A stretch of 32,000 nt of DNA, from assembly GCA_008932965.1 (NCBI GenBank), contig WBXG01000005.1, forward strand, positions 1 to 32,000, written 5' to 3'. The notes under the pieces are model-generated. The model ran no database searches. It saw only the letters and a list, made by a program, of their open reading frames with translations, and was not told the DNA's origin. Position numbers and translations under genes: made by a program. The DNA is from Verrucomicrobiota bacterium. Lineage in GTDB: Bacteria; Verrucomicrobiota; Verrucomicrobiia; Chthoniobacterales; UBA6821. Positions 1-27,696 of the stretch are shown here, in pieces (the stretch's first letter is position 1; every line of letters starts with the position of its first letter).

Positions 1-165
1 CTACCGATCTACTACGGAAGCCGGGAAGTCAGATGGATGCTGCGTTAGACTCCCATTTTGATTTGGGCAGTATGTACACATACAGCCCTGCATCAAAATA
101 CTCCTGCCTTACCCCATCAGCCTTCGCGGTCTCCTCGTCACGATCAGTATGAAATATGCGGGTTA
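1..165 (+). mobile_element. MITE-like repeat family, copy A (left TIR cut off by the window edge)
   Basis: Aligns along its length with copies at 6277-6457 and 7419-7599. Shared blocks are gggaagtcagatggatgctgcg and agccttcgcggtctcctcgtcacgatcagtatgaaa. The right end atgaaatatgcgggtta is the inverted-repeat terminus. Confidence 0.8.
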
Positions 166-167
166 AT

Positions 168-226
168 GGAGTAAGCACCGAGCCTTTCACAAACCGTAAT
201 AGATTTAGTGTAAAATATTCGGGCTA
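168..226 (-). repeat. Left-end fragment of the same repeat family (subtype shared with copy C), inverted and abutting copy A
   Basis: The reverse complement reads tagcccgaatattttacactaaatctattacggtttgtgaaaggctc. This matches the left arm of copy C (cgaatatttcacactaaatttattacagcttgtgaaaagctc). Confidence 0.6.
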
Positions 227-261
227 GGTAAGCATTAATTTATGAATTATAGTAGCAATCG

Positions 262-2514: not shown

Positions 2515-2817
2515 AAAAGTCTGCTTTAAAATTTTATGAATGCTAATATTGGAGGGGCTACTTTGAACTATAGAAAGCCTCTGAGACCTATTGAGAGTTT
2601 CATGATGAAGCCGAAGTCAAACCGCTTTAGAAAATTCTAATACATGAACTCAAGCTAGCACAAAGAGACTCAAGTATCGCTTTTCCCCTCTTCAAAACTC
2701 AAAAATGTGAAAGCAGACTTTCTTGAGGAGCTAAACACCCTAATAGCAAAAGTAGAGAAGTTCAATGGGAAAAAGAAAAATTCAGAAGAATAAAGTATTC
2801 TCTCAAGTGTTATCGAT

Positions 2818-2849
2818 TAACCCGGGTATTTTAAACTGATCGTGACGAG
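2818..2849 (-). repeat. Terminal remnant (right-end TIR region) of the MITE-like family
   Basis: taacccgggtattttaaactgatcgtgacgag matches the reverse complement of the copy A right end (taacccgcatatttcatactgatcgtgacgag) at 28 of 32 positions. It lies 14 nt past the HIT gene stop. Confidence 0.6.
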
Positions 2850-4806: not shown

Positions 4807-6279
4807 ATGTCCTATTCTTCTCTTGCTCATTTTGTAAAAACTCTTGAAGAGGCTGGTGAATTGATCCGCATCACTCTTCCCGTAGCGACAGAGCTGCAAA
4901 TTACAGAGTTAGCGAATCGCGAAATGAAGAAGCCAGAAGGAGGAAAGGCGTTGCTTTTTGAAAAACCAACGATCCATGGAGTCATTTCCAAATTTCCTGT
5001 TTTAATCAACGCGATGGGTTCACGCAGGCGGATGGCAATGGCCTTAGGGCTTCATTCGGTGGAAGAACTATCCAGTCAGTTGGAATTCCTGATGAAGGCA
5101 AAACCGCCCAAAACATTCCGTGATGGTCTGACTCTCTTGCGGCAAGGAATCGATCTTGTTCATGCACGTCCCCGTTATGTGAAGCGCGGACCGTGTCAAG
5201 AGGTGGTCTATCGTTTAGATCAGGCGCAAAGTGATTTTTCGCTCAGCAGTCTCCCTATTCTTAAATGCTGGCCTCATGATGGAGGGCGCTTTGTAACCCT
5301 ACCAACAGTTTATACTAAAGACCCTGACACTGGGGATCGTAATATCGGCATGTACCGAATGCAGGTCTATGATGGCTCCACAACCGGAATGCATTGGCAG
5401 GTGCACAAGGTGGCGGCGCGCCATGGAAAGCGTTACTATGAGCGAGGAGAACCGATGCCAGTGGCTGTTGCCTTGGGTGGTGATCCTGTCTTTCCCTTTT
5501 CAGCAATGGCTCCACTTCCAGATGGTATTGATGAAATTCTCTTCGCAGGATTTGCACGCAAACGTTCTGTAGAGCTCGTGAAGTGTATAAGTGTGCCTCT
5601 GGAAGTACCAGCGGAGAGCGATATCGTGATCGAGGGTTTTGTCTATCCAGGGGAAACCCGCCCGGAAGGGCCATTTGGTGATCATACGGGATTTTATACG
5701 CCAGTCGATGACTATCCTGTTTTTCATGTCACCGCAATCACCCATCGTCGTGAAGCCATCTATCCTGCAACTATTGTGGGTGTACCTCCCATGGAAGATT
5801 TTTATATGGGAGAGGCAAGTGTGCGCATTTTTCTTCCTATCTTTAAAATGAATTTTCCAGAGATCGTCGACATGGCCCTGCCTGCAGAAGGAGTCTTTCA
5901 CAATCTTGTTTTTGTGAGTATTCGAAAGCAATACCCTTGGCAGGCATTCAAGGTAATGCATGGCCTCTGGGGAATGGGCCAGATGATGTTTTCGAAATAT
6001 ATCATTGTGGTGGATGAGGATTGTAATGTTCAAAACACTTCCGAAGTGATCTTCCGACTTTGTTCTAATACTGATCCACAGCGCGATAGCATTGTGACTA
6101 AAAATCCCAGTGATAGTCTCGATCATGCCCCAACCATTGCTAATCTGGGATCCCATATGGGATTTGATGCCACAAAAAAACTGCCTGGGGAAGGTTATAC
6201 CCGGGGCTGGCCAGACTTAGTTAAGATGGATCCAGCAGTTGAGGCATGGGCAGATCAGTTTGTTGGATATCCGGGTTAA
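4807..6279 (+). CDS. UbiD-family (prenylated-FMN dependent) aromatic decarboxylase, quinone biosynthesis type
   Basis: 490-aa ORF with the UbiD hallmark block GGRFVTLPTVYTKDPDTGDRNIGMYRMQVYDGSTTGMHWQVHK. The stop codon lies inside the terminal palindrome of repeat copy B. Confidence 0.85.
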   Translation: MSYSSLAHFVKTLEEAGELIRITLPVATELQITELANREMKKPEGGKALLFEKPTIHGVISKFPVLINAMGSRRRMAMALGLHSVEELSSQLEFLMKAKPPKTFRDGLTLLRQGIDLVHARPRYVKRGPCQEVVYRLDQAQSDFSLSSLPILKCWPHDGGRFVTLPTVYTKDPDTGDRNIGMYRMQVYDGSTTGMHWQVHKVAARHGKRYYERGEPMPVAVALGGDPVFPFSAMAPLPDGIDEILFAGFARKRSVELVKCISVPLEVPAESDIVIEGFVYPGETRPEGPFGDHTGFYTPVDDYPVFHVTAITHRREAIYPATIVGVPPMEDFYMGEASVRIFLPIFKMNFPEIVDMALPAEGVFHNLVFVSIRKQYPWQAFKVMHGLWGMGQMMFSKYIIVVDEDCNVQNTSEVIFRLCSNTDPQRDSIVTKNPSDSLDHAPTIANLGSHMGFDATKKLPGEGYTRGWPDLVKMDPAVEAWADQFVGYPG

Positions 6280-6457
6280 CCCGCATATTTGATACCGATT
6301 CTGCTGCGGCTTGCGAACCCCTAATGGATACTGCGTCAGTCTCGAATTGCTCCTCGGGCAGTATGAAACATACAGCCCTGCATCAAAATGCTCGCCTGCC
6401 TTACCCCATCAGCCTTCGCGGCCTCCTCGTCACGATCAGCATGAAACATCCGGGTTA
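6277..6457 (+). mobile_element. MITE-like repeat family, copy B (181 bp, full length)
   Basis: TIRs are taacccgcatatttgat at the left and atgaaacatccgggtta at the right, with TA at both ends. Internal blocks are shared with copies A, D and E. Confidence 0.85.
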
Positions 6458-6473
6458 ATGAGGCTTGTTTTTT

Positions 6474-7247
6474 TTAGTCGATAGTATCAAAAAAATATAC
6501 TTTTACTGCTAGTGCTATTTTTTTTATGAAACCAACACGATAGACCTGATGAAAAACATCATAACGATCACGCTTTATTTTTTCTAAAAGTGTTCGATAG
6601 ATAGCTTCCATCAGGCGTGCAGGGCGCATGAGATGGCGCTCGCATGGTGACATTTTTTTCCAAGCAATTTCTGCTTTTGCAAAAAAGGAGAGGGCTCTTT
6701 CTGCTTCGTAATCGAGTAGATGGATTGCTTGGGGTGAAGGGGTTGAATTGAGAATTTCTTTTTCTGTGACATGAAAGCGGGCGAAATCTTCAAGAGGTAA
6801 ATAGATTCTTCCTCGAGTAGCATCTTCGGCAACATCCCGCAGGATGTTGGTCAGCTGCAAGGCAAGTCCAAGATTCTCAGCATACTCGTTGACATTTTTT
6901 CCGCTGGCTCCAAAAAGTTGTGCGCTGACGAGTCCGACTGCAGAGGCAACGCGCCACGCATAGAGCCGAAGATCTTCAAATGTTTCATAACGATTAATTG
7001 AAAGATCCATCCGCATCCCTTGAATGATCTCCTCAAGTACTGTTCGATCTAGTTGATAACGTTCCCTCAGTTCCTCCAATCTCTCAAGAGCCGTCTGTAG
7101 AACGTTTTCTTTTTCACGCAATGAAAGTGATATGCTATCTACGCATTCATCAATGCTATGACACAAGTCATAGAAACGAAGTGCGCTCTTACGACGAGCT
7201 CGTGGTAAGAGGTAAAGAGCAATGGCTAAGTTTGATTGAAAATTCAT
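6474..7247 (-). CDS. Squalene/phytoene synthase family protein (HpnD/CrtB-like)
   Basis: 257-aa ORF. First Asp-rich motif is IDECVD. Second motif is NILRDVAEDATRGRIYLP, the characteristic DxxED...GRxYLP block. It is shorter at the N-terminus than the typical 280-310 aa. Confidence 0.8.
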   Translation of the reverse strand: MNFQSNLAIALYLLPRARRKSALRFYDLCHSIDECVDSISLSLREKENVLQTALERLEELRERYQLDRTVLEEIIQGMRMDLSINRYETFEDLRLYAWRVASAVGLVSAQLFGASGKNVNEYAENLGLALQLTNILRDVAEDATRGRIYLPLEDFARFHVTEKEILNSTPSPQAIHLLDYEAERALSFFAKAEIAWKKMSPCERHLMRPARLMEAIYRTLLEKIKRDRYDVFHQVYRVGFIKKIALAVKVYFFDTID

Positions 7248-7265
7248 ACCATGATGGTGATTGGT

Positions 7266-7420
7266 TCATTCGAATATTTCACACTAAATTTATTACAGCT
7301 TGTGAAAAGCTCTATGGCTACTGCGTTAATCTCGAATTGTGATTGGGGTGGTAGGGACTCCTACAGCCGTCATTAGCCTTCGTGGTCTCCTCGTCACGAT
7401 CAGTATGAAAATTCGGGTTA
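7266..7420 (+). mobile_element. MITE-like repeat family, copy C (shorter variant, about 155 bp)
   Basis: The left end cgaatatttcac and the right end cctcgtcacgatcagtatgaaaattcgggtta match the family. The left arm matches the fragment at 168-226. It shares its terminal TA with copy D. Confidence 0.75.
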
Positions 7421-7599
7421 GCCCGAATATTTCATCCCAATCTACTGCGGAAACCGGGAAGTCAGATGGATGCTGCGTTGATCTCGAAGTCTTCCTCGGG
7501 CAGTGTGTATACACACAGCCGTCGTCAGACTTCATCACTCGCCTTGCCCCATGAGCCTTCGCGGTCTCCTCGTCACGATCAGTATGAAAATTCGGGCTA
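7419..7599 (+). mobile_element. MITE-like repeat family, copy D (181 bp, full length)
   Basis: TIRs are tagcccgaatatttcat at the left and atgaaaattcgggcta at the right. There is a central perfect 14-nt palindrome gtgtgtatacacac (7503-7516). The reverse strand is open through the whole element. Confidence 0.88.
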
Positions 7600-7649
7600 G
7601 AGATTCTTTGACTCGTTACCCATTACTCGCTACCGGTTATGTGTCTCAT

Positions 7650-8249
7650 ATGACACTACCTAATCAAATTACTCTTGGTCGGATTTTACTGATTCCCATT
7701 TTTGTGCTCTTAGCTGTCTATTATGGACATAGTGTTGAAGCAGGGGAACCTGAAGAAAAATTACGTATTGCTGCTATTATTGTTTTTTTAGTCGCAGCGC
7801 TTAGCGATGGGGTTGATGGATGGTTAGCACGTCACTTTCGTCTTCAATCTCGCTTAGGGGCTATTCTGGATCCCATTGCTGATAAAGGATTGATGCTAAC
7901 TGCGATCATTACACTGAGTGTGAGTAATTGGGATCGGTCATTACCACTTTGGTTTCCAGTCTTAGTGATTACTCGCGATATCATTATTTTAACCGGATGT
8001 GCTCTGCTTCGTTTTCTCAATGGTTCTCTGGAAATTCGTCCCAGCTCTCTTGGAAAAATTTCTACTTTTTTTCAGATGTTTGCAATCGCAGTGGTATTGC
8101 TGCAGTGGCGTTATTACAGCATTATTGTTGGAATAGCTGGTATTGTTACCTTGCTCAGTGGTATCGGATATATAATCGATGGTGTTCGACTTTTAAAATT
8201 AGGGGGTCATGATAGGCCGACATCGGGAGATGTAATGGGTAATGGGTAA
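7650..8249 (+). CDS. pgsA: CDP-diacylglycerol--glycerol-3-phosphate 3-phosphatidyltransferase (CDP-alcohol phosphatidyltransferase family)
   Basis: Contains the motif DGVDGWLARHFRLQSRLGAILDPIADK. I chose the ATG at 7650 (MTLPNQITLGRILLIP), because the ORF-track start at 7503 lies inside repeat copy D. The last 5 codons and the stop are encoded by the heptamer array. Confidence 0.85.
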   Translation: MTLPNQITLGRILLIPIFVLLAVYYGHSVEAGEPEEKLRIAAIIVFLVAALSDGVDGWLARHFRLQSRLGAILDPIADKGLMLTAIITLSVSNWDRSLPLWFPVLVITRDIIILTGCALLRFLNGSLEIRPSSLGKISTFFQMFAIAVVLLQWRYYSIIVGIAGIVTLLSGIGYIIDGVRLLKLGGHDRPTSGDVMGNG

Positions 8250-8315
8250 TGGGTAATGGGTGGTGAGTGGTGAGTGGTGAGTGGTGAGTAAGGGGTAATG
8301 AGTGATGAGTGATGG
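8232..8315 (+). repeat. Heptanucleotide tandem array 1 (12 units, G-rich on the + strand)
   Basis: Counted by hand: gtaatgg x4, gtggtga x4, then gtaaggg, gtaatga, gtgatga, gtgatgg. Units are reverse complements of units in array 2. Confidence 0.95.
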
Positions 8316-8410
8316 GTTCTAAAGAGCACTATTCATTATCGAACGTAATGTTGAGAAGAGGATTACTCTCAGTACAAATTTCGAAATTTAATTTCATTTC
8401 GATTCTAAAA

Positions 8411-8641
8411 TTACTCCTTACCCATTACCCATCACCCATCACCCATCACCCATCACCCATCACCCATCACCCATCACCCATTACTCCTTACTCCTTACTC
8501 CTTACTCCTTACTCCTTACTCCTTACTCCTTACTCCTTACCCATTACCCATTACCCATTACCCATTACCCATTACCCATTACTCATTACTCATTACTCAT
8601 TACTCATTACTCATTACTCATTACTCATTACTCATTACTCA
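8411..8641 (+). repeat. Heptanucleotide tandem array 2 (33 units in homogeneous blocks, C-rich on the + strand)
   Basis: Counted by hand: ttactcc x1, ttaccca x2, tcaccca x7, ttactcc x8, ttaccca x6, ttactca x9. The array ends 10 nt before the der ATG. Confidence 0.95.
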
Positions 8642-8651
8642 TTCCTTTTTT

Positions 8652-11333: not shown

Positions 11334-11409
<76 letters not shown>

Positions 11410-11445
11410 GAAGAGTATAACAACAACAACCACTAGAACACTAAT

Positions 11446-12630
11446 ATGGCTAAGGACACATTCCAACGCAACAAGCCGCACGTTAACGTCGGCACCATTG
11501 GTCACGTCGATCACGGCAAGACCACACTCACTGCTGCGATCACTACGGTGCTTGCAAAGTCTGGTAAAGCCCAAGCACGAGCTTATGACCAAATCGATGC
11601 TGCTCCCGAAGAAAAAGAGCGCGGTATTACGATTTCAACAGCCCATGTGGAGTATGAAAGTGATGCTCGTCACTATGCCCACGTCGATTGTCCAGGACAT
11701 GCTGATTATGTTAAAAACATGATTACTGGTGCTGCTCAAATGGACGGAGCAATTCTTGTTGTGAGTGCTGCTGATGGTCCAATGCCACAAACACGTGAGC
11801 ACATTCTTTTGGCTCGTCAAGTAGGTGTTCCATCCATGGTTGTTTTCATGAACAAGGTAGATCTTGTAGATGATCCTGAATTACTCGATCTCGTTGAGAT
11901 GGAAATTCGCGATCTTCTTAGCTCCTATGATTTCCCTGGTGATGAAATCCCTATCGTCAAAGGAAGTGCAAAAAAAGCTCTTGATGGAGATCCAGAAATG
12001 GAAAAACAAATTCTTGCACTCATCGATGCTGTAGATAAATACATTCCACTTCCAGAGCGTCCAAAAGACCAACCATTCCTCCTTCCTGTGGAAGATGTCT
12101 TCAACATTGAAGGACGTGGAACTGTTGCCACAGGTCGTGTAGAACGTGGTATTCTTAAGAAAATGGAGGAAGTCGAAATTGTAGGTTTGAAGCCTACAGT
12201 CAAGACAACAGTCACTGATATTGAGATGTTCCGTAAACTTCTTGATACTGCAGAAGCAGGCGACAACGTTGGTCTCCTACTTCGTGGTGTCAAAAAAGAA
12301 GATATTGAGCGTGGTCAGGTCATTGCAAAAGTCAACTCCATCAAGCCTCATAAAAAGTTCAAAGCTGAAATTTATGTCCTAAGCAAAGATGAAGGGGGCC
12401 GTCATACACCTTTCTTCTCTAACTATCGTCCTCAATTTTACTTCCGCACTACCGATGTTACTGGCAGCGTTAAACTCCCAGAAGGAGTTGAAATGGTCAT
12501 GCCCGGTGATAACGTAGCTATCGAAGTAGAACTCATTACTCCAATCGCTATGGAAAAAACGATCCGCTTCGCTATTCGTGAAGGTGGTCGTACCGTAGGT
12601 GCTGGACGTGTTTCCGAAATCCTAGACTAA
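11446..12630 (+). CDS. tuf: Elongation factor Tu
   Basis: 394-aa ORF with [18 protein letters not shown] and NKVD motifs. Full-length EF-Tu. Confidence 0.98.
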
Positions 12631-12709
12631 TCTACGAAAATAGAAGATTGGGAGTCTGAAAAAAGTACTCCCATCTACTATTTCTGGATTTTAATATCCT
12701 CAAACGTAA

Positions 12710-12782
12710 AGGCCAGTAGCTCAATTGGTAGAGTAGCGGTCTCCAAAACCGTTGGTTGGGGGTTCAAGTCCCTCCTGGCCTG
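12710..12782 (+). tRNA. tRNA-Trp (anticodon CCA), no encoded 3' CCA
   Basis: Hand fold. Acceptor AGGCCAG/CTGGCCT, anticodon stem GCGGT/ACCGT with loop CTCCAAA, T loop TTCAAGT. Close to E. coli tRNA-Trp. Confidence 0.92.
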
Positions 12783-21246: not shown

Positions 21247-22146
21247 TTACGGCAGCAGTTCAATAATGCAGTGAACTTGATTCTGTGATAATTCAGCAAT
21301 CTGAGCAATTTGTTCCAAGGGTAAACCAGAGCGATGCATACTGATCACAAATCTTTTTTTCTCCTCTTCTTTTCCTTTAGCCTCACCTTGAGCAAGCCCT
21401 TTAGCCTCACCTTGAGCAAGCCCTTGAGCAAGCCCTTCTTTGTACTTGCCACTGAACAGAGTTCTTTCAGAGCTCACTGCATCCCAGCTTTTATCGTAGG
21501 CAAGTAATTCAGCTTCGCTGTAGGAAGCGATTTCTAGAAGAGAGATGGCCTCTTTGATCGAATCTACTTCCAAAAAACTGGGATCGACAACTTCTGTTTT
21601 TTCGTTGATCTCTTTTAAAAAACGGAGCCAAAGAACAGTAGCTCTTTTTGTGGTGATGCTGGTTGGTTTGAACTTAGGAAGTTCAATAAGGACCAATTGA
21701 ATATCTTCTAAACTCTTGCTTTCATCATGAGCATTGGTCATTCGGTAATGATGAAACCACTCTTGTTCTTGAGAAAAAGTGGTATCTAGTAACGCCACTC
21801 CATAGACAGGGCTGAGGTGTTCATAGCTTTTCCCTTTCTTTAATTGCCGAGCATAGGTTGTAGCTGTGTTGAAAAGCATTCTCTTGATAAAATCACTCGT
21901 CCATTGCAATTGCATTTCTACGATGAAGTGACGTCCGTGATTGTCAAAGCAACGCACATCAACAATAGAATATTTTAACGCAGTAATTTCAGGAACACTC
22001 TCCGAAGGCAAGTAGATCAAACTCTCAATGACGCAATCTGGAGGCAACGGCAAAATAGCATTGAGAAAATCTTGGAGTACATTGGGATGGTGACCAAAAA
22101 TTTTCTTAAAGACTAAATCACTCTTAGGGTCCAGGTAGCGTGGCAT
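21247..22146 (-). CDS. Rpn-family recombination-promoting nuclease / PD-(D/E)XK putative transposase
   Basis: The N-terminus MPRYLDPKSDLVFKKIFGHHPNVLQDFLNAIL is characteristic of the Rpn/YhgA-like family. It has an internal low-complexity GLAQGEAKG repeat. Confidence 0.8.
   Translation of the reverse strand: MPRYLDPKSDLVFKKIFGHHPNVLQDFLNAILPLPPDCVIESLIYLPSESVPEITALKYSIVDVRCFDNHGRHFIVEMQLQWTSDFIKRMLFNTATTYARQLKKGKSYEHLSPVYGVALLDTTFSQEQEWFHHYRMTNAHDESKSLEDIQLVLIELPKFKPTSITTKRATVLWLRFLKEINEKTEVVDPSFLEVDSIKEAISLLEIASYSEAELLAYDKSWDAVSSERTLFSGKYKEGLAQGLAQGEAKGLAQGEAKGKEEEKKRFVISMHRSGLPLEQIAQIAELSQNQVHCIIELLP
21374..21433. repeat. 24-bp tandem repeat (2.5 units) inside the Rpn-like gene
   Basis: cctttagcctcaccttgagcaagc occurs at 21374-21397 and 21398-21421, followed by the half unit ccttgagcaagc. 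It encodes GLAQGLAQGEAKGLAQGEAKG. Confidence 0.9.
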
Positions 22147-25341: not shown

Positions 25342-27696
25342 TTAATTTTCCATTTTTGAAACTAAAATCACAACAGAGCGTGATTCTACTAAGTAACTTT
25401 CCGCATTGATGGAAGGGGCTTCTTTCCAAGGGAGGATGTCCTGAGGCGATTCCTTAAAAGTATCAATACAACAACGCCAGGGTGTGTAGAAATTAGTGCA
25501 CAAGGGAATTTCAAATTCTAGAGATTTCCAAAAAGAATTGATCATGATATGAATCATCACTTTGTGATCATAATTACGCATTGTTGCAGCTAAGGCGTGT
25601 GAATCTGCACCTAGGTCAGGAGCATTGAGTTTGACACCATGCCACTCAATGGCTTTTTCGATAAGAAGTTCTCTCAATGTTTGAGCATAGGTGTCACAAA
25701 GATGACTGCGGTCTAAACGAAAATTAATGAGTTGCCGTGTGAATCGATGGATATCGGCATGTTTCTTGAGGAGGGACCAGTCAAAGGATCCGATATCACC
25801 TGCATGACAGTAGGCATTGTTATTTCCTTGTTGAGTACGTCTCACCTCATCACCAGCTAAAATCATTGGTGTTCCTACAGAGAAAAAAAGTATTGTTAAA
25901 AAATTTTTAATTTGTCGATTGCGTAATTTTTCAATTTCAGAATCCTCCGTAGGCCCCTCCATTCCGCAATTCCAGCTGCAATTGAAATTAGATCCATCGC
26001 GGTTGTTTTCTTGATTAGCTTCATTATGCTTTTCATTATAGCTCACCAGATCATTGAGAGTAAAACCATCGTGACAGGTAATAAAATTGACGCTCTGTTC
26101 AGGGTTTCTCTCTTCATTTTCATAAATATCTGGGCTCCCTGTCATGCGGTAAGCAAGAGATCTAATAGTATTATTATCTCCTTTAATAAAAGAGCGAACA
26201 TCATCACGAAAATGTCCATTCCACTCATTCCAGGAATCTCCAGGAAAATGTCCCACTTGGTACAGTCCGGCAGCATCCCATGCCTCTGCAAATAACTTAA
26301 TGTTTGCTAGTACAGGATCGGATTCGATATCCCAGATAGTAGGAGGATGAGCCATGGGAGTTCCTGATTCATCACGAGAGAGAATAGAGGCTAGATCAAA
26401 ACGAAAACCATCGATATGCATCTCATCAACCCAATAACGAAGAGAGTCAAGAATGAGACGACGCACAATAGATTCATTAGCGTTGAAGGTATTTCCACAA
26501 CCACTAAAGTCAGCATAGGTTGCTTTATCTTTTCCTAAAATATAGTAGGTTTCATTGCCAAGTCCACGGAAAGAGAGTGTAGGGCCATGAAGGCCTCCTT
26601 CCGTAGTGTGATTAAAAACGACATCGAGAATTACTTCAATGTTTGCACGATGCAGTGCTTTGACCATGGAACGAAATTCATCTAATACGGCTAATGGCTC
26701 TTTTTTTGAGGAATACTGAGGATGCGGTGCAAAAAAAGCATAGGGTTGATAGCCCCATATATTAGAAAGGCCATCGGGTGCGTCTTCCGGGTCAAAGGCA
26801 AAGATCGGGAGTAATTCCACAGCAGTGATTCCAAGCTCTTTTAAATAGGGGATTTTTTCAATAACTCCAGCATAGGTACCTCTTTTTTCAGGAGAGAGAC
26901 CAGAATTAGGATTGCTAGTGAATGTCCCAATATTCATTTCGTAAATAACTGTTTTACATAAAGGATGGCGCAAAGGCAAATCACCCTCCCAATCGTAAGA
27001 TTTAGAATGAACAACTACATTTTTTATCGCAGTAACACAATTATCCCCTGGTGCTGCAGCAGCTTTACGGGAACGAGAAGAAGGGAGAGCTATACATTTT
27101 CCATAAGGATCAAGTAATACTTTTTCAGAGTCAAAGCGAAGTCCCTCCTTGCTATTAAAGGGACCATACATACGCCAAGCATAAATTTGGCCCTCTTTCA
27201 GACCAGGTACAAAAACATGCCAATAATGATAAGATCTATTTTGCTGGGTTGTAAGTGGAATCACTTTCGAGGGCTTGGTATCCTCAATATGATCAAAAAG
27301 CAGCAACTCCGCCTGCTTTGCATGTTTTGAAAAGATGCTAAAGTTAACGCCATGCTTAAATACAGTGGCTCCAAGTGGAAAACTTCTCCCCGTCTCCTTG
27401 CCAAATGCTGCTCTTGAAACTAATCCAGATATTTCATGCTCATCACCTACAACAATTGGGGAGCCAGATGGATGCTGCGATGAGCTCAAAGTAGTGCTCT
27501 GGCAGTGTATGCTTGCACCTAGGTCGTCAGACTTCATCACATATCCTGACCCATCAGGCTTCGCAGCCTCCTCGTCACGATCAGTATGAAATATCTCAGT
27601 GAGCTGGGAGGACTCCATGTTTACCTCCTTGGGTTTATTCAAGGACTGAGCGCTAGGAGCTGCTCCAGGGATATTCTTTGTGGTAAGATCTGTCAT
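25342..27696 (-). CDS. glgX: Glycogen debranching enzyme GlgX with a repeat-derived N-terminal extension
   Basis: GH13 debranching core beginning FPLGATVFKHGVNFSIFSKHAKQAELLLFD at about residue 105, with GFRFDLAS and EAWD motifs. About 100 extra N-terminal residues include a translated copy of the MITE-like repeat. An alternative start is the ATG at 27537, inside the repeat. Confidence 0.88.
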   Translation of the reverse strand: MTDLTTKNIPGAAPSAQSLNKPKEVNMESSQLTEIFHTDRDEEAAKPDGSGYVMKSDDLGASIHCQSTTLSSSQHPSGSPIVVGDEHEISGLVSRAAFGKETGRSFPLGATVFKHGVNFSIFSKHAKQAELLLFDHIEDTKPSKVIPLTTQQNRSYHYWHVFVPGLKEGQIYAWRMYGPFNSKEGLRFDSEKVLLDPYGKCIALPSSRSRKAAAAPGDNCVTAIKNVVVHSKSYDWEGDLPLRHPLCKTVIYEMNIGTFTSNPNSGLSPEKRGTYAGVIEKIPYLKELGITAVELLPIFAFDPEDAPDGLSNIWGYQPYAFFAPHPQYSSKKEPLAVLDEFRSMVKALHRANIEVILDVVFNHTTEGGLHGPTLSFRGLGNETYYILGKDKATYADFSGCGNTFNANESIVRRLILDSLRYWVDEMHIDGFRFDLASILSRDESGTPMAHPPTIWDIESDPVLANIKLFAEAWDAAGLYQVGHFPGDSWNEWNGHFRDDVRSFIKGDNNTIRSLAYRMTGSPDIYENEERNPEQSVNFITCHDGFTLNDLVSYNEKHNEANQENNRDGSNFNCSWNCGMEGPTEDSEIEKLRNRQIKNFLTILFFSVGTPMILAGDEVRRTQQGNNNAYCHAGDIGSFDWSLLKKHADIHRFTRQLINFRLDRSHLCDTYAQTLRELLIEKAIEWHGVKLNAPDLGADSHALAATMRNYDHKVMIHIMINSFWKSLEFEIPLCTNFYTPWRCCIDTFKESPQDILPWKEAPSINAESYLVESRSVVILVSKMEN
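27421..27601 (+). mobile_element. MITE-like repeat family, copy E (181 bp, diverged), embedded antisense in the glgX reading frame
   Basis: The left end taatccagatatttcat, the internal block ccagatggatgctgcg, and ggcttcgcagcctcctcgtcacgatcagtatgaaatat align with copies A, B and D at the same spacing. Confidence 0.8.

Follow-up and report, generated by a model that had tools for sequence, protein, structure and literature searches.

A high-copy inverted-repeat element with a 60-codon footprint, found between genes, at their stop codons and inside them in freshwater Chthoniobacterales

The first 32,000 nucleotides of contig WBXG01000005.1 (assembly GCA_008932965.1, a Verrucomicrobiota bacterium of the Chthoniobacterales; this whole stretch is called the window below) carry seven copies and fragments of one repeat, several of them touching genes. 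The locus thus raises the question of what kind of element the repeat is, and how it can persist at the ends of genes and within them. An initial annotation of the window had taken it for a transposable element of the miniature inverted-repeat kind (MITE) that duplicates a TA target, derived from insertion sequences (IS) of the IS630/Tc1-mariner type. Our reading, to which we give a probability of roughly 0.8, is that it is a high-copy non-autonomous cut-and-paste MITE with a 60-codon footprint, free of stop codons in both orientations, which persists in genes, at stop codons and between genes.

The family is very abundant, with several hundred copies and fragments in metagenome-assembled genomes (MAGs) of Verrucomicrobia/Chthoniobacterales and in freshwater metagenomes. 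A 22-nt core motif was present in at least 96 stretches among the GTDB species genomes, and the matches listed all lay in four Verrucomicrobia MAGs (Kiruna_bin-02438, Tobar2m-G38, Deming_bin.170 and a Lac Pavin MAG). The 21-nt right terminal inverted repeat (TIR) was present in at least 79 stretches of JGI metagenome contigs. A profile hidden Markov model (HMM), built from 81 copies outside the window, located 262 non-overlapping copies or fragments within 627 kb of MAG blocks, and a second set, from metagenomes, provided 149 terminal-repeat pairs; together the two sets sample about 1.3 Mb. Counted in this way beyond the window, the family stands well above chance. Window genes share about 70% DNA identity with the corresponding loci of the Kiruna MAG. 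Strains that match the window at 99–100% identity are present in two NCBI assemblies and several freshwater metagenomes, for example JGI 3300027969 and the ENA sets KRAE22, GROS21 and BUCK21. Many of the sampled contigs terminate within a copy, and attempts to extend the contig past the window retrieved only short contigs ending at repeats. A literature search on MITEs of Chthoniobacterales turned up nothing relevant.

The consensus of the element reads YTAR-CCCGnATATTTCATACTGATC ... GATCAGTATGAAATATnCGGG-YTAR, with a core that begins with CCCG and ends with CGGG; the element boundaries were taken as CCCGnATATTTCATAC...GTATGAAATATnCGGG plus YTAR, and the most conserved stretch is CTCCTCGTCACGATCAGtATGAAA. 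The TIRs, CCCGnATATTTCATACTGATC plus flank, are near-perfect over about 25 nt in the consensus of 81 copies; their presence was rightly recognised in the window, and their length, first given as 15–17 nt, was set too short. Complementarity runs beyond the TIRs over the full element, making the whole core an imperfect palindrome. The element is small and without a transposase ORF (open reading frame), the only ORFs within it being read-through frames.

At both junctions a TA dinucleotide is nearly invariant (103–106 of 111 copies). Perfect 4-bp direct repeats flank 64 of the 91 TA-ended MAG copies (TTAA 36, CTAG 19 and CTAA 9) and 63 of 143 copies in the metagenome set, the latter including six CTAA...CTAA and four TTAG...TTAG pairs. 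Moreover, the left flanking base co-varies with the right inner base, and the left inner base with the right flanking base (odds ratios 30 and 35; Fisher p = 7e-11 and 7e-10), a pattern replicated in the metagenome set (p = 1.5e-4 and 1e-6). This covariation, along with the non-palindromic CTAA...CTAA pairs, indicates that the target-site duplication (TSD) is 4 bp long, YTAR (TTAA, CTAG or CTAA), rather than TA. On the left side the flank is rich in G (G-N-N-YTAR). Of 91 copies, 25 adjoin another copy and share the tetranucleotide with it, as two copies in the window do. Copies often sit beside an older one because an element end with its TSD recreates the preferred target (GGG-YTAR). With its small core, its 25-nt TIRs and its TSD of fixed length (4-bp YTAR), the repeat has the features that support its identity as a non-autonomous TIR/TSD element, a MITE, of a freshwater Chthoniobacterales lineage, as had been proposed from the window.

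The same junctions bear on the descent proposed for it, namely that of an ordinary intergenic TA MITE derived from IS630/Tc1-mariner elements, whose copies in genes would be incidental or pseudogene debris. Such MITEs share with the repeat the TA at the target centre, the TIRs and the small size; the near-invariance of the TA agrees with this origin, and TTAA and CTAG junctions would also be expected from IS630-type insertion into NTAN if the ends were A...T or G...C. However, IS630/mariner elements duplicate only TA, and here the flanking and inner bases co-vary as a 4-bp direct repeat and non-palindromic pairs occur in both sets. No IS630-family transposase with these TIRs was found among the sampled DNA. 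Of the TA duplication first described, the TA at both ends has therefore held up, but not the claim that TA is the full duplication.

The length and the reading frames of the element set it further apart. By pairing of left and right TIRs, the core length has its mode at 176 nt (63 of about 100 standard copies), and a 176-nt core plus a 4-nt TSD makes 180 nt, or exactly 60 codons. In the phase in which YTA is read as leucine (Leu), 59% of the copies are without stops on one strand and 47% on the other, whereas the other four frames are open in 3–7% of copies and shuffled copies are open in about 7%. The encoded consensus peptide is L-(T/A)-RIFHTD...(D/N)(Q/E)YEISG-L; the two orientations yield two peptide types with common ends, LTRIFHTDRDEEAAKADG...VDQYEISGL and LTRIFHTDLLRKPGSQMD...RHDQYEISGL.

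Many copies sit within long ORFs that stay open for hundreds of codons to either side. When 102 standard MAG copies were classed by extending their Leu-phase frames into the flanks, the classes and their core lengths were as follows.

Inside an ORF, at least 50 open codons on each side: 17 of 102 copies, core 176 nt in all
Terminal fusion to an ORF: 7 of 102 copies, core 176 nt in all
Leu-phase frame open, short flanks: 44 of 102 copies, core mostly 176 nt
Closed frame: 34 of 102 copies, core mostly of other lengths

The metagenome set comprises 18 in-ORF copies and eight terminal fusions among 143 copies, and in every one of these in-ORF copies the core plus 4 nt is divisible by three (cores of 92, 176, 182, 188, 209 and 272 nt). 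In-frame copies inside or fused to long ORFs thus make up about 18–24% of each sampled set, and the in-gene share rises to as much as 41% (26/64) among copies whose core is exactly 176 nt. In the host ORFs of both sets, the Pfam domains are intact on both sides of the insert. The hosts are listed below.

PheT: insert at residues 191-251, between the tRNA_bind and B3_4 domains
Dxr: insert at residues 60-120, splitting the NADPH-binding domain
Further hosts, MAG set: a PMT-family (GT39-type) glycosyltransferase and a PD-(D/E)XK (PDDEXK_1) nuclease-domain protein
Further hosts: GcvP, IspG, MacB/FtsX, a family-5 solute-binding (SBP_bac_5) protein and PyrF
Further hosts: a polysaccharide deacetylase–GT2 fusion and an endonuclease/exonuclease/phosphatase-family (Exo_endo_phos) protein

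When the Dxr host was aligned with Dxr of M. tuberculosis (PDB 2c82), the alignment broke at residue 47 and restarted at 147. For the IS630/Tc1-mariner descent, it can be said that the majority of copies are intergenic, but the copies in genes do not look like debris: they are in frame between intact domains, and all 24 in-ORF or fused MAG copies have a core of exactly 176 nt. We consider that origin improbable.

The conserved peptide ends (RIFHTD...YEISGL) inside many unrelated proteins could also be taken to mean that a genuine, functional 60-residue protein module has been duplicated among genes and that the intergenic copies are its decayed remnants. The substitution pattern argues against such a module. 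Relative to the consensus, the 26 coding copies carry 242, 339 and 319 substitutions at codon positions 1, 2 and 3, with no third-position excess, and non-coding copies read in the same pseudo-frame carry 692, 819 and 819. Single changes in the coding copies are near neutral (102 synonymous vs 257 nonsynonymous), and an orthologous in-gene pair on two related contigs (L085 and L096) differs at 10, 10 and 6 sites by codon position. Furthermore, one and the same DNA encodes peptides in both orientations, the middle parts of which are unrelated, and the copies are mostly non-coding. A database search with the encoded peptide returned 31 small hypothetical ORFs (57–107 aa) and no large host protein; the MAG host proteins are evidently absent from that protein collection. 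A functional module is highly improbable on these grounds. The substitutions indicate, rather, that the peptide is tolerated, not selected, and that its open frame and its length have been retained but its amino-acid sequence has not.

In the window itself, repeat detection, a five-way MAFFT alignment and the profile HMM all recovered exactly the inventory of the initial annotation, five copies and two fragments, with E-values from 1e-55 to 1e-4. The length of 181 nt given there is true for the three full copies if both TA dinucleotides are counted, and copies C and D are indeed joined through a common junction. The copies, lettered A to E, the fragments and the gene that harbours copy E are as follows.

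1-166, plus strand: copy A, cut on the left by the window edge; CGGG core end at 162, right TSD TTAA at 163-166; HMM 18-183, E = 1e-50
168-227, minus strand: solo arm of a divergent subfamily, ending ...AAAATATTCGGG followed by CTAG (224-227); nhmmer 2-59, minus strand, E = 8.5e-5
2817-2849, plus strand: solo left terminus, TTAA plus CCCGGGTATTTTAAACTGATCGTGACGAG; detected by inverted-repeat pairs and by nhmmer (E = 2.4e-5)
6276-6458, plus strand: copy B, TSD TTAA at 6276-6279, 175-nt core at 6280-6454, TSD TTAA at 6455-6458
7265-7421, plus strand: copy C, core at 7269-7417, right TSD TTAG at 7418-7421 in common with copy D; HMM 7-183, E = 4e-29
7418-7600, plus strand: copy D, TTAG at 7418-7421, 175-nt core at 7422-7596, CTAG at 7597-7600; E = 3e-55
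25342-27618, minus strand: glgX (glycogen debranching enzyme; Pfam CBM_48, Alpha-amylase and ISOA1-3_C), with copy E in frame
27420-27603, minus strand: copy E, CTAA at 27420-27423, 176-nt core at 27424-27599, degenerate TGAG at 27600-27603

Copy C belongs to a divergent subfamily and has an internal deletion of about 28 nt and a degenerate left end (TTCA plus TTCG...). The solo arm at 168-227 is of the same type as the left arm of copy C and lies 35 nt upstream of the tatC start, and the solo terminus at 2817-2849 sits immediately 3' of a HIT-family gene (stop at 2864, minus strand). The match of copy C begins at 7266 or 7271 and runs to 7420. The HMM match of copy E covers 27421-27595, its 3' terminus being degenerate.

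Read in frame on the minus strand, copy E would lengthen the glgX product by 60 residues, L-TEIFHTDRDEEAAKPDG...DEHEISG-L, placed after codon 5; the strong Shine-Dalgarno sequence (AAGGAGG) of the gene is kept before the ATG at 27618. The predicted N-terminus of the window GlgX thus reads MESSQ-[60-aa insert]-VSRAAFGKETGRSFPLGAT, with the host–insert junction ...MESSQLTEIFHTDRDEE..., and the predicted protein has 758 residues compared with 685–698 in its homologues. All 120 GlgX homologues among the matches listed cover only the last 75% or so of a 399-residue N-terminal query, and the closest of them (82% identical) starts with MESCASTEPLSKLKQEPGRTFPLGAT (MESCAST...) and is without the inserted segment. 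Homologues lacking the segment and the matching MESSQ and MESCAST starts indicate that copy E inserted after about codon 5 of glgX and that the frame was kept. AlphaFold2 predicted residues 1–82 of the window GlgX to be unstructured, at a predicted local distance difference test (pLDDT) score of about 29 in a model that is poor as a whole (mean 54), a weak further point against a functional protein module.

Copy B bears on a second kind of site, the stop codon. The TAA stop of ubiD (4807-6279) at positions 6277-6279 lies in the left TSD (TTAA) of copy B, which occupies most of the gap between the convergent ubiD gene and a squalene/phytoene synthase-family (SQS_PSY) gene. The TAR of the TSD closes an ORF of 80 or more codons in 28 of 112 MAG copies and 25 of 143 metagenome copies, compared with 2.4% of background YTAR sites, a contrast that overstates any stop-codon preference since the background includes coding sites. 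We read the copies at stop codons as survivors among harmless insertions. The last 27 nt of ubiD (6253-6279, GATCAGTTTGTTGGATATCCGGGTTAA) resemble a right TIR with its TSD (GATCAGTATGAAATATCCGGGTTAA); the C-terminal residues and the stop codon of UbiD may be what is left of an earlier, now eroded copy beside the site of copy B.

Copies C and D, finally, take up almost the whole of the intergenic region that separates the divergent SQS_PSY gene and a gene for a CDP-alcohol phosphatidyltransferase (pgsA-like): copy C begins 18 nt upstream of the SQS_PSY start codon (7247, minus strand), and copy D lies 50 nt upstream of the likely pgsA-like start (ATG at 7651). The early suggestion that the repeat shapes gene ends is thereby borne out more strongly than it was proposed, given a ubiD stop codon within copy B, copy E inside glgX, and copies C and D in a divergent promoter region.

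The position of copies at gene ends and in promoter regions would also suit a hairpin selected by the host (similar to REP/BIME sequences, small RNAs or terminators) for mRNA stability, termination or RNase III processing. The folding data lend this some support, as copy D forms a full-length hairpin far more stable than shuffled sequences (-71.8 and -81.8 kcal/mol on its two strands; z = -5.4 and -7.0). Over 64 copies 83.7% of the cells are paired, with 89.7% in terminal helix 1 and modest covariation in the arms, and double-sided pairing changes number 88 against 40 in shuffles (reached by 0 of 500 shuffles). RNAalifold on the same 64 copies recovered only the terminal helix because the subfamilies are mosaics. 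It should be underlined, however, that arm covariation is expected of any palindromic transposon with subfamilies, that the TIRs, the TSD and the target specificity are transposon features, and that the copies lie either way round relative to genes and are found within coding sequence as well. Rfam 15 at the gathering threshold identified four tRNAs only in the whole window, none of them on a repeat copy, and at E ≤ 1 gave only chance hits on five loci with long-class copies (see below), leaving elements and their central module unmatched; a promoter and terminator scan of 6100-7800 revealed no consensus within the copies. A host-selected hairpin is quite improbable in our view.

If the repeat is a mobile MITE, its transposase would be encoded elsewhere, and none for it was found in the window, in agreement with the initial annotation. 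The search for a partner covered TIR matches outside known copies and TIR pairs 0.3–4 kb apart with enclosed ORFs, which turned out to be ordinary genes. Multicopy genes found by self-BLAST of the loci were only orthologous blocks, and a 94%-identical block consisted of a glucose-6-phosphate dehydrogenase-like ORF and an ABC-transporter ATPase-like ORF, as judged by eye from the translations. Viral contigs contained no element-bounded transposase; the sole viral TIR match (IMG/VR contig L110, 2387-2413) is a 20-nt chance match within a 992-aa ORF (...ARIFHTD...) and not a copy of the element. The window does contain a gene for a 299-aa PDDEXK_2 protein (PF12784, Rpn/YhgA-like "PD-(D/E)XK nuclease family transposase"; 21247-22146, minus strand). 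The gene has a single copy, does not differ between the strains and lies in synteny with an orthologue of 59% identity in the Kiruna MAG (L049); its product was rejected as the mobilising enzyme, no link to the repeat having been found.

The ends and the duplication can nevertheless be compared with those of known IS families. A 4-bp duplication is a likeness to both IS5, of which YTAR is the conserved TSD motif (PMC10359306), and IS701, whose members produce duplications of exactly 4 bp and have the published end consensus ---YACT-Y--YR (PMC2266710). Compared by eye, the TIR of the element, CCCGGATATTTCATACTGATC, misfits this IS701 consensus, and the element differs from both families in having no transposase gene. 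The same TIR also misfits the ends of IS5, which we take to be GGAAGGTGCGAA.... With the transposase gene lacking and ends that misfit both, the link to either family is no more than a candidate one.

The copies also carry traces of their history. Best matches within a genome are on average 93–94% identical (maximum 98.9%) and those between genomes 89–91% (maximum 95.5%), with flanking genes only about 75–80% identical between genomes. These figures suggest lineage-specific amplification plus either horizontal spread or concerted evolution. The copies are mosaics built from a small number of discrete haplotypes, for the arms and for the centre. A long class of 257–295 nt contains a non-coding central module of 85–105 nt in either orientation, which essentially never occurs alone (one partial match, about 1 kb from any copy). 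In strains 99% identical to the window, copy B (L097, 5043-5161; L098, 1939-2057) has a 119-nt module-bearing segment in place of the 37 nt at 6378-6414 of the window, with identical flanks. The 85-nt conserved module of this copy (modB) is 98.8% identical to copies in the Tobar2m MAG, although the genes of that MAG are only about 75–80% identical.

Presence and absence at orthologous sites was observed between species, in glgX, in Dxr relative to its PDB homologues, and in a gene of the Kiruna lineage in which contig L096 has an insert at residues 84-144 that L085 lacks; both carry one at the same downstream site. This gene encodes about 1,020 residues with no Pfam domain and holds two in-frame copies in L096 (2859-5912); in a related metagenome contig (L156) the downstream copy is of the long class, 272 nt, and still in frame (272+4=276). 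Within populations the comparison of empty sites, also proposed in the initial annotation, was ambiguous. Copy D is absent from assembly L097, which was dropped as an empty site because C and D have identical right arms, and a deletion between these gives the CTAG junction without extra mutation. A 134-nt copy in L113 (378-513; an internally deleted 130-nt core plus TTAA), absent from the 99.7%-identical L114, lies directly upstream of a full copy; its borders fit slippage between 14-nt direct repeats of the two left TIRs, and it was dropped as a recent jump. Strain comparison was enabled by the cluster tRNA-Thr - tuf - tRNA-Trp - secE - nusG at 11334-12782, whose EF-Tu is 100% identical in 17 metagenome or assembly contigs.

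Taken together, the process we propose for the MITE would run as follows. A DDE-type transposase supplied in trans would bind the ends of about 25 bp and make 4-nt staggered cuts at YTAR. Insertion in the Leu phase inside a gene would add a tolerated 60-residue segment, as with copy E in glgX and in pheT, dxr, ispG, gcvP and pyrF of relatives, and at a stop codon the TAR of the retained TSD copy would stay a stop, as with copy B at ubiD. Since the length is 60 codons and the Leu phase is free of stops, in-phase and stop-codon insertions would be harmless and accumulate. Other copies would land in intergenic DNA, often next to an older copy, and recombination between arms would later reshuffle the copies, giving mosaics, the long class with its 85–105-nt module, and loss of tandem copies.

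Several observations weigh against this reading. About 30–55% of the copies are without a perfect 4-bp repeat, and copies B and D of the window, with 175-nt cores and a 179-nt footprint, are off the 60-codon rule. An open frame combined with a length divisible by three has a chance level of about 2% in the consensus. For both strain differences, in L097 and L114, deletion between tandem arms or assembly collapse would explain the absence at least as well as transposition. The roughly 1.5 Mb of DNA sampled around copies yielded no autonomous IS or transposase with these ends, and mobilisation in trans by a DDE enzyme is something we infer from TIR and TSD alone. Likewise, the inserts as protein segments are predicted from reading frames. 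Adaptive tuning of the frame and length of the element is plausible, not proven.

The closest parallel is found in Rickettsia. In PMC10969869 the Rickettsia palindromic elements (RPE-1 to RPE-10; Ogata et al. 2000, 2002) appear as palindromic repeats in frame within housekeeping genes, and the case is called "unique but recurrent" after the title of Ogata et al. (2002). Like these, the Verrucomicrobia element is short, palindromic and high in copy number, lies often in frame in many unrelated housekeeping genes, where it would add a tolerated peptide with the host ORF kept intact, and has intergenic copies too. The hosts, on the other hand, are free-living freshwater Verrucomicrobia and not obligate intracellular Alphaproteobacteria, and the element is marked by explicit TIRs of 25 bp, by a YTAR duplication of 4 bp and by a footprint fixed at 180 bp, features that point to a transposase mechanism. 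To our knowledge, no TSD or TIR mechanism has been defined for RPEs. By this comparison the element is best regarded as an analogue of the RPEs, not a member, set apart by its hosts, and a sequence relationship would not be expected.

Other bacterial MITEs are occasionally found within ORFs and alter protein ends, for example QMITE1 of Coxiella, MITEb and MITEe of Anabaena, and intragenic ERIC and BOX elements (PMC10969869 and PMC5896051). All of these are, like the present element, non-autonomous TIR elements; here, by contrast, residence in genes is systematic, involving about a fifth of the copies, and tied to an exact 60-codon footprint that is stop-free in both orientations. What would be new is thus a MITE that combines RPE-like tolerance within genes, explicit TIRs and TSD and a 60-codon footprint, in a new phylum.

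A further repeated structure of the window lies between the pgsA-like gene and der, where two inverted blocks of tandem heptanucleotides were observed. The first (8232-8314, plus strand) consists of GTAATGG and GTGGTGA; the second (8410-8643), of the complement type (ATTACCC, ATCACCC, TTACTCC and ATTACTC; 33 copies, 95% match), stops 9 nt short of the start of der. Several metagenome contigs from this strain begin within the heptamer array, and the blocks resemble the STRR-type heptamer repeats of cyanobacteria.

Protein-coding palindromic selfish DNA has so far been treated as a peculiarity of Rickettsia, where its means of spread is unclear; here the outcome is the same, and the element has clear TIRs, a defined target of 4 bp and a footprint of 60 codons. 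Whether this is a second, independent case, in which selection on the element itself shaped the footprint and the stop-free frames for colonising essential genes (pheT, dxr, ispG, gcvP, pyrF and glgX) and stop codons, seems to us evenly balanced. With the TIRs, the target and the footprint known, the presence of selfish DNA in essential genes comes down to a testable design rule of target phase, length divisible by three and stop-free frames. Annotation of these genomes by gene callers and aligners will go wrong at starts, at stops and over "novel insertions", and assemblies break or collapse at the copies. The copies in Dxr, IspG and PheT amount to natural 60-residue insertion scans of these enzymes, and the element, if such selection did shape it, would be a steady source of 60-residue protein insertions.

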